Of a stretch of DNA of 23,978 bases, positions 15,254-15,562 are shown one piece after another. Location: IMG/VR virus record IMGVR_UViG_2600254997_000020, positions 1-23,978 of that record; one strand, 5' to 3'. Below the pieces are notes generated by a model. That model was given only the letters and a program-made list of their open reading frames with translations, did no database searches and was not told the DNA's origin. The stretch comes from a virus (lineage: Duplodnaviria; Heunggongvirae; Uroviricota; Caudoviricetes). The position numbers and the translations under genes are program-made. Position 1 is the first letter of the stretch. Each line of letters starts with the position of its first letter.

Positions 15254-15562
15254 CTAATATACAAACTGATCCACATGATCACCCAAATCATCGTCGTCGT
15301 CCTCATCGCCACCATCTACTGCTGGCCAATCAACAAACCAGCCAGCGTAAAGATGCAGCGTTCGGAGAACATCACTTGCGGGAGCATCAAGGGTGTTAAC
15401 GAATCCCATATAGCTATTGGGATTTGCTCCAGCTATGGCTTCAGCGATCATGTCCTCGGTAATGTCACCGGAGATAATGCTTAAACGCCCGGAAACTTCT
15501 TCATTATCATCAAATTCGATAATGGCATCTCCACCTAATGGCGCTGCGATTTTAATCTGCAT
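15254..15562 (-). CDS. Hypothetical highly acidic small protein (102 aa), last gene of the Dar operon
   Basis: ATG at 15562 overlaps the ddrB-like stop by 11 bp. About 24 Asp/Glu against 3 Lys/Arg, with C-terminal run DGGDEDDDDDLGDHVD. No HTH pattern. Confidence 0.55.
   Translation of the reverse strand: MQIKIAAPLGGDAIIEFDDNEEVSGRLSIISGDITEDMIAEAIAGANPNSYMGFVNTLDAPASDVLRTLHLYAGWFVDWPAVDGGDEDDDDDLGDHVDQFVY

Follow-up and report, generated by a model that had tools for sequence, protein, structure and literature searches.

The phage P1 gene hxr and its linkage to the C-terminal metallopeptidase module of DdrB

The window analyzed here is a stretch of 23,978 nucleotides (nt), positions 1 to 23,978 of the IMG/VR tailed-phage record IMGVR_UViG_2600254997_000020, and in the darA operon of its P1-type Dar antirestriction system it carries, at the end of ddrB, an open reading frame (ORF) for a highly acidic protein of 102 amino acids (aa). 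This ORF is the already annotated phage P1 gene hxr, and the Hxr family forms a conserved, coupled pair with the C-terminal metallopeptidase module of DdrB, the linkage between the two being exclusive and co-diverging. Because this linkage goes together with coupled translation of the two genes, the best-supported reading is that Hxr binds the DdrB C-terminal module, as a dedicated, co-translated partner or regulator. We put the probability of this reading at roughly 45%, and both the physical binding and the regulatory role are what we infer from sequence. The gene itself was known; what is new relative to the database records and the searchable literature is that its repressor label is unfounded, that the protein family has no detectable relatives in sequence or fold, and that it is paired with the DdrB module. 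Phage P1 is a workhorse phage, the Dar system is a model for virion-delivered antirestriction, and hxr is present in essentially every P1-like phage-plasmid. We regard the finding as a lead rather than a discovery, of interest mainly to specialists in P1 and Dar and in polyvalent virion proteins.

Identity and conservation of hxr

The hxr coding sequence (CDS; 102 codons and a TAG stop) occupies 15254..15562 on the minus strand and, according to the ORF list of the window, opens with an ATG at 15560..15562. From the hxr stop codon on, the window DNA is 98.5% identical to P1 24245..25190, and the encoded protein agrees with P1 Hxr (P1_gp021, YP_006490.1) in 98 of 102 residues, the substitutions relative to P1 being D56N, V81A, F93L and I100F; the stop codon is TAG in the window and TAA in P1. 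In the P1 record (NC_005856), hxr spans 24244..24552 and overlaps ddrB at 24542..27529. The P7 record (AF503408.1) names the gene odaA, with "unknown protein function", and P1 hxr and P7 odaA are the same gene in the same place after ddrB, with the same 11-nt overlap as in the window. PHROG 2292, a family labelled as being of unknown function, matches the window protein over its whole length (E 2.3e-58). The nearest record overall is Escherichia phage vB_EcoM-673R5, with 99.4% identity over 1.8 kb, downstream cargo included. The first-pass annotation of this DNA had contrasted the ORF with P1 hxr, as if something else occupied that position. Since the ORF is P1 hxr, it is an annotated gene and not a replacement at the hxr position, and the contrast falls away. 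The same annotation was right that Hxr has never been given a role in the Dar system.

The acidity that had drawn attention to the ORF is real. Hxr contains 17 Asp and 6 Glu but only 1 Lys and 2 Arg, which gives a net charge of -20 and a calculated isoelectric point of ~4.05, and the Asp run near the C terminus is the segment DEDDDDD at D86-D92 (15287..15307, minus strand), encoded by GAC/GAT repeats, whose position was confirmed by translation.

Several lines of evidence show that hxr is a genuine protein-coding gene and more than a chance ORF. An intact ORF was found at the same offset in all 80 P1-like IMG/VR contigs that were retrieved with the DdrB C terminus, and almost all differences between them concern how long the acidic run is (~5-10 D/E, the frame being kept throughout) and the final few positions of the protein. 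Across codons 1-80, 12 synonymous and 10 nonsynonymous variant codons were counted, corresponding to a crude per-site nonsynonymous/synonymous ratio of ~0.24. Homologues down to 29% identity retain the reading frame, the overlap with ddrB and the acidic tail. Exhaustive HMMER and word-index searches returned a small family with members of ~95-107 aa and two tandem duplications, carried by phage-plasmid-sized contigs (~80-96 kb) of Escherichia, Klebsiella, Citrobacter, Cronobacter, Rosenbergiella and Pantoea; one cluster at 90% identity holds 848 sequences. The two duplications are metagenomic proteins (P0015, 184 aa; P0038, 187 aa) with tandem Hxr domains in one polypeptide, the long acidic tail being kept in the second copy and absent from the first. 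In a CRISPR interference screen, hxr was dispensable for plaque formation, like the known Dar genes (PMC10695390), and beyond this non-essentiality no published hxr phenotype and no discussion of Hxr function was found in the searchable literature.

Exclusive and co-diverging linkage of Hxr to the DdrB C-terminal module

In the window, ddrB is intact (995 aa, 15552..18539, minus strand), and its last 11 nt, from the hxr start codon to the ddrB stop codon (15552..15562, minus strand; ATGCAGATTAA), are shared with hxr. A Shine-Dalgarno sequence for hxr, AAGGAG at 15570..15575 on the minus strand, lies 7 nt before the ATG and is formed by Lys-Glu codons of ddrB. The coupling to ddrB claimed by the first-pass annotation is thereby confirmed, with the ribosome-binding signal placed inside ddrB codons. 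The 11-nt overlap is kept in five further loci (L003, L004, L008, L009 and L010) where Hxr identity has fallen to 30-47%, and it measures 14 nt in Cronobacter phage JK004. When the junctions were aligned, AAGGA(G/A) was equally spaced in 7 of 7 loci, and the DdrB C termini ended in KE(L/M/I)xxxx before the stop. From the stop-start overlap with an internal Shine-Dalgarno sequence we infer, on the basis of what is established about translational coupling, that synthesis of Hxr keeps pace with that of DdrB, as it typically does for subunits of one complex.

The order lydA-lydB-hdf-darA-ddrA-ddrB-hxr, on one strand, is the same in the window and in P1, and hxr is encoded in the darA operon. The DNA downstream of hxr differs in every homologous locus, and in P1 and the window it consists of different cargo. 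That hxr is the last ORF of the Dar operon is correct in the P1 sense, because P1/P7 similarity ends exactly at the hxr stop. In the window itself, a same-strand ORF of 122 aa (14679..15047, minus strand; PHROG 26730) begins 206 nt after hxr; a pattern scan found no terminator between the two, and the 221-nt RNA downstream of hxr folds no better than its shuffles (z 0.32).

A tblastn search of 50,697 phage records found Hxr in 20 and full-length DdrB in 20, and every Hxr record is in the DdrB list. Phage D6 carries hdf, darA and ddrA together with only aa 2-475 of DdrB (an annotated CDS of ~454 aa), and it is without Hxr. DdrB is in fact mosaic. In phage JK004, identity to the window is 87% for the DdrB N-terminal half, 76% for DdrA, 72% for DarA and 78% for Hdf, and it is 33-40% for DdrB aa 476-995 and 48-49% for Hxr, which places the breakpoint at about residue 475, where the D6 protein also stops. 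In six related loci compared with the window, identity was 57-87% for DdrB aa 1-475, 19-33% for aa 476-730, 37-41% for aa 731-995 and 30-48% for Hxr, so that the divergence of Hxr follows the C-terminal half of DdrB, and not the N-terminal half, in 6 of 6 loci. The module that Hxr accompanies is the DdrB C-terminal half, aa 476-995 (15555..17114, minus strand), with its zincin-type metallopeptidase region, in which translation places the zinc-binding motif HELGH (HExxH) at aa 872-876 (15912..15926, minus strand). HExxH is invariant in the alignment of DdrB C termini, that of Vibrio phage VAP7 included.

With the HExxH-containing DdrB C terminus (aa ~725-995) as bait, a wider search reached loci outside the P1 clade. 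In the IMG/VR loci L094-L097, L102 and L103, as well as in the Pantoea alvi contig L176, a gene for a protein ending in a DdrB-type domain directly precedes one for a protein of 100-103 aa that matches the Hxr profile; the two genes overlap by 1-4 nt or lie 1 nt apart. Conditional E values of the profile matches were 1e-11 to 6e-5 in the first pass and, for L176, 1e-10 after one iteration. These proteins carry the motif L..L....G..V.WP(E) and the C-terminal tips -IN, -VN or -CF; their net charge ranges from -6 (L097) to -16, and some of the tails contain Lys or Arg. In the collections searched, every Hxr locus whose context was examined (the 20 phage records, the 80 IMG/VR contigs, L003-L010, L094-L097, L102, L103, L175 and L176) adjoins a DdrB-type HExxH C-terminal domain.

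At seven loci with more remote relatives of the peptidase, namely Vibrio phage VAP7, the IMG/VR loci L098 and L100, Rosenbergiella metrosideri (L177) and metagenome-assembled genomes of Desulfovibrio (L179), a cyanobacterium (L180) and Shewanella (L181), an ORF of 76-132 aa also abuts the peptidase gene; most of these ORFs encode acidic proteins, and net charges run from -17 to +4. Merging the ORFs of L098, L100, L180, L177, L179 and L181 with the Hxr family was tried and had no statistical support. The L177 protein aligns with Hxr by eye at L66, at W79-P80 and at an -EIN tip, but not statistically. At L099, L171 and L178 no abutting ORF was found, and in two of these three the large protein runs well past the peptidase match. 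In L098 (3010..5120 of the locus; IMGVR_UViG_2897842695_000001) the parts are separated and stand in another order: a protein that ends in the DdrB-type peptidase domain is followed by the 76-aa ORF and then by a separate 626-aa protein whose N terminus resembles the ParB region of DdrB.

The VAP7 ORF is notable because a structure search with the Hxr model had, independently, listed its product as a weak match (viral Foldseek rank 21, TM scores 0.39/0.42). It encodes a 90-aa protein annotated as "tetraspanin-15", an implausible name for a phage protein (L012 4756..5028; MK795384.1 133937..134209), and it starts after a 2-nt gap behind the gene for a 1207-aa protein whose C terminus matches DdrB aa 731-968 and contains the DdrB-type HExxH. 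With a net charge of +4, the 90-aa protein is basic, and it lacks an acidic tail. Homology to Hxr was not confirmed, hhalign giving E 0.087 over 19 columns and hmmsearch E 0.03-0.06 in a tiny database, with a VAP7 profile built from only one divergent relative. We therefore treat the VAP7 ORF as a positional analogue of hxr only, the likeness being suggestive.

Predicted structure and possible roles of Hxr

With an alignment of 19 sequences, AlphaFold2 returned an Hxr model with a mean predicted local distance difference test (pLDDT) score of 75; an earlier prediction from 7 sequences (pLDDT 51) had been too poor to use and was rerun. The predicted folded core, aa 1-80 (15323..15562, minus strand), has ten-residue-block means of 67-89, mostly above 80, with strands at residues 2-6, 12-16 and 28-32 and helices at 36-44 and 62-71, and it ends at the invariant W79-P80. 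The C-terminal tail, aa 81-102 (AVDGGDEDDDDDLGDHVDQFVY; 15254..15322 with the stop, minus strand), has a net charge of -10 without any Lys or Arg and is predicted to be disordered, confidence being low from residue 83 on and pLDDT below 50 at residues 83-86, 93-97 and 99-102. In 19 of 19 homologues the tail has a net charge of -8 to -14 and no basic residue while its sequence varies; the net charge of the core ranges from -3 to -10 across the family, and that of the whole protein from -11 to -22 in the homologues. At the extreme C terminus stands a hydrophobic residue followed by Asn, Tyr, His or Phe, as in the tips -IVN, -VVN, -EIN, -IVY and -FVY. G53, L66, W79 and P80 are invariant in the family, joined by V65, R67 and W75 among the closer members and reduced to L66, W79 and P80 in the wider family, and about six core positions (16, 19, 33, 38, 70 and 78) are conserved as acidic.

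The conserved hydrophobic and aromatic residues fit a fold with a protein-protein interface, and in the tail it is only the acidic composition that is conserved. The model thus suggests that Hxr consists of a small folded interaction domain and a compositionally constrained, flexible, polyanionic tail with a recognizable tip, in which the core would be an alpha/beta domain of ~80 residues without detectable relatives and the tail a disordered, purely acidic segment of ~22 residues. Searches of the PDB and of viral models turned up no structural relative of the Hxr model, and sequence and profile searches of the PDB gave nothing significant at E<=10, a match to RapA at E 0.66 being dismissed as chance. 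A folded domain with a flexible acidic tail that ends in a hydrophobic or aromatic residue is also the design of the Escherichia coli single-stranded DNA-binding protein (SSB) and of T7 gp2.5, whose tails dock onto partner proteins and compete with DNA for basic surfaces. However, the tips differ (-DIPF and -DF in SSB and gp2.5, -IVN and -IVY in Hxr), and the Hxr core has neither an oligonucleotide-binding (OB) fold nor any likeness to these proteins.

In GenBank the P1 protein is described as a "possible repressor; homolog of Xre", and the first-pass annotation had described hxr as an Xre homologue. This matches the P1 record, whose remark that Hxr aa 23-80 and Xre aa 2-80 are 28% identical, over ~58 residues, is the sole support for the label, but the label itself does not hold. 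Pfam gave no family at E<=1 for the window protein, NCBIfam and PADLOC gave no match, and none of the 19 family members matched HTH_3 or any other helix-turn-helix (HTH) profile at E<=10; the earlier statement that the ORF shows no HTH pattern stands, and P1 Hxr is likewise without one. The model begins with three beta-strands and contains only two helices, which is not the five-helix HTH domain, and the P7 record attaches no function to the same gene. A net charge of -20, with 23 acidic and only 3 basic residues, is incompatible with a DNA-binding surface and makes Hxr an implausible DNA binder. With Xre and the Cro/C1-type HTH_3 repressors, Hxr shares only a similar size and its historical gene name. 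On the sequence searches and the predicted fold, then, an Xre-type repressor can be set aside with near certainty. As databases spread the label "putative repressor Hxr", the correction is useful in itself.

A second explanation, proposed in the first-pass annotation, is that Hxr acts against host defenses as a DNA mimic, occupying, as Ocr and ArdA do, the DNA-binding site of a host enzyme such as a type I restriction-modification complex or of another DNA-binding defense. The charge speaks for it: with -20 for its 102 residues, and between -11 and -22 among the homologues, Hxr has a charge density similar to that of the known mimics Ocr and ArdA. Like Hxr, T7 Ocr (gp0.3) and ArdA are small, strongly acidic proteins that mobile elements encode in an antirestriction context; hxr itself lies in an antirestriction operon, and some six acidic positions of the Hxr core are conserved. 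Charge and neighborhood are all that favors the idea. Half of the charge lies in a disordered, sequence-variable tail and not on a rigid scaffold, and no carboxylates are among the invariant residues, which are Gly, Leu, Trp and Pro. Distant members are less acidic (-6 in L097) and have Lys or Arg in their tails. None of the 19 members matched the Pfam Ocr or ArdA families, the PDB gave no sequence match, and Hxr shares no sequence, profile or fold similarity with either protein. The charges of Ocr and ArdA are borne by rigid helical scaffolds, and these proteins are the first to be produced upon entry, whereas Hxr has a beta-rich predicted core and a disordered tail and is encoded at the end of a late operon. 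The Hxr model shows no elongated, Ocr-type helical fold with carboxylates arranged like bent B-DNA and has no structural match to the three-domain ArdA fold. As no structural relative appeared in the PDB or among viral models, Hxr is predicted to be neither Ocr-like nor ArdA-like, although fold dissimilarity cannot exclude mimicry, because the known mimics share no single fold. Timing is a further difficulty. Since the darA operon is late according to the P1 literature, a free cytoplasmic mimic would come too late for incoming DNA unless it were packaged, and Hxr was undetected in virions. The distribution of Hxr, moreover, follows the DdrB C-terminal module. We consider DNA mimicry unlikely, about half as probable as a partnership with DdrB or less; if it were true, Hxr would represent a new fold for this activity.

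The virion data bear directly on a third explanation, in which Hxr would be an overlooked seventh packaged Dar protein, an internal head protein that would be loaded with DdrB, be ejected with the DNA and do its work in the newly infected cell. All other products of hdf-darA-ddrA-ddrB are head proteins (PMC9024508), and synthesis of Hxr is coupled with that of DdrB. Hxr is not among the 27 P1 virion proteins, nor in the one supplementary file that was accessible for the same study (PMC9024508). This negative is weak, because trypsin would cut Hxr into fragments of 4, 22, 41 and 35 residues, of which the 35-residue one contains 11 acidic residues, leaving one convenient peptide against a cut-off of two unique peptides (PMC9024508). 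A net charge of -20 would nonetheless be electrostatically unfavorable beside tightly packed DNA, and no capsid-targeting feature was identified in Hxr. Packaging of Hxr seems to us improbable, and more so than mimicry.

We therefore return to Hxr as a partner of the DdrB C-terminal module, for which coupled translation and the exclusive, co-diverging linkage argue. In such a scheme, Hxr would be made together with DdrB late in infection and, while still in the producing cell, would chaperone or regulate the maturation of DdrB. What the tail would do is speculative, and we rate any specific tail role much below the partnership as such: the tail may be an electrostatic decoy that (i) could fill the DdrB peptidase cleft as a product-like or pseudo-substrate segment or (ii) might shield DNA-binding surfaces of Dar proteins until these are inside the head. 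For the first of these, small proteins that pair with a zinc peptidase through a flexible terminal segment with a conserved end offer an analogy. In potato carboxypeptidase inhibitor, the tissue inhibitors of metalloproteinases (TIMPs) and the serralysin inhibitors, a terminal segment is inserted into the metallopeptidase active site. These inhibitors are not homologous to Hxr, and inhibition of the DdrB peptidase by Hxr is conceivable by analogy only. Within the Dar system, a parallel is Ulx of the P1 darB operon, a small non-enzymatic Dar protein reported to help in loading a large Dar protein (PMC9024508). Ulx, which lies outside the window and is likened to Hxr by description, was found in virions and Hxr was not. 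A partnership of this kind would give a handle on the 76-kDa processing of DdrB and on the dependence of DarB loading on DdrB.

Some observations weigh against a partnership. Tight gene packing is normal in phages, and the evidence from phages D6 and JK004 is weaker than it looks, because adjacent phage operon genes are lost or exchanged together. The abutting ORFs of VAP7, L098, L100, L177, L179, L180 and L181 have no significant similarity to Hxr. Nothing points to regulation of the DdrB metallopeptidase, and where the Dar system has been described in print, six proteins are named and Hxr is not mentioned (PMC12810830, PMC9024508).

A broader proposal is that Hxr-like proteins, as a class so far unrecognized, are small proteins that partner with the metallopeptidase domains found in "polyvalent" virion proteins of phages. 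Here, a co-translated acidic protein would hold or guide the peptidase and so set when and where effectors such as DdrB are cut and loaded, the acidic tail serving as a pseudo-substrate or a DNA-like decoy, and the abutting ORFs of ~100 aa in Vibrio, Desulfovibrio, Shewanella and cyanobacterial elements would be divergent members. We hold this extension to be doubtful, and less probable than the partnership with DdrB itself. That partnership, if real, would also suggest a general accessory factor for peptidase domains, the domains that most often serve as hubs among the polyvalent proteins of phages and plasmids.

DdrB and the surrounding window

Besides the C-terminal module, DdrB of the window contains a DdrB-like ParB domain at aa 36-167 (18039..18434, minus strand; Pfam PF18763, E 2.1e-39). 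In the published description, a ParB-like domain at the N terminus and a zincin metallopeptidase (MPTase) domain at the C terminus are assigned to DdrB, which is reportedly cut to ~76 kDa before packaging, probably autocatalytically (PMC5512222). Two other sources describe DdrB as a head protein required for the incorporation of DarB (PMC9024508, PMC12810830).

A possible product mimicry was considered and rejected. DdrB aa 699-701 (16437..16445) read IVN, in the context AAIVN|RVIG at aa 697-704, and a fragment of aa 1-701 would have a mass of 76.5 kDa, the reported processed size; most Hxr homologues end in -IVN. The match is probably a coincidence, because IVN is not conserved at this place in DdrB homologues and the Hxr proteins of the P1 clade end in -IVY or -FVY.

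Annotation of ddrB varies among records. In the 673R5 record (ON470615.2; L002 7153..10138) ddrB is split into three CDSs, and tblastn likewise returned three pieces, while the P7 record (AF503408.1) names ddrB "prt: putative protease" and ddrA odaC. An antisense ORF of 132 aa inside ddrB (17587..17985, plus strand) matches P1 iddB in position and length (399 nt, 132 aa).

Elsewhere in the window, darB seems to be interrupted. Its ORF (1301..7009, minus strand) encodes 1902 aa, with similarity to P1/P7 darB beginning only at 1332, and in the P7-like plasmid pSCKP83 darB measures 6768 nt (~2255 aa). Two pieces of an IS4-family transposase lie at 116..1322 (NCBIfam NF033591, E 1e-24 and 1.4e-78). 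From the sequence, this element may lack an active DarB arm of its Dar system, while its darA operon, ddrB and hxr included, is intact.

Between ssb and the hxr stop (11620..15253), the cargo of the window differs from that of P1. It comprises an IS4-family transposase gene at 11620..12747 on the minus strand and a gene for an anti-phage dGTPase at 13017..14471 on the plus strand (NCBIfam NF041026, E 2.8e-171; PADLOC dGTPase, E 7.9e-149). The corresponding slot holds isaA, IS1 and isaB in P1 and a porin gene in P7 and pSCKP83.

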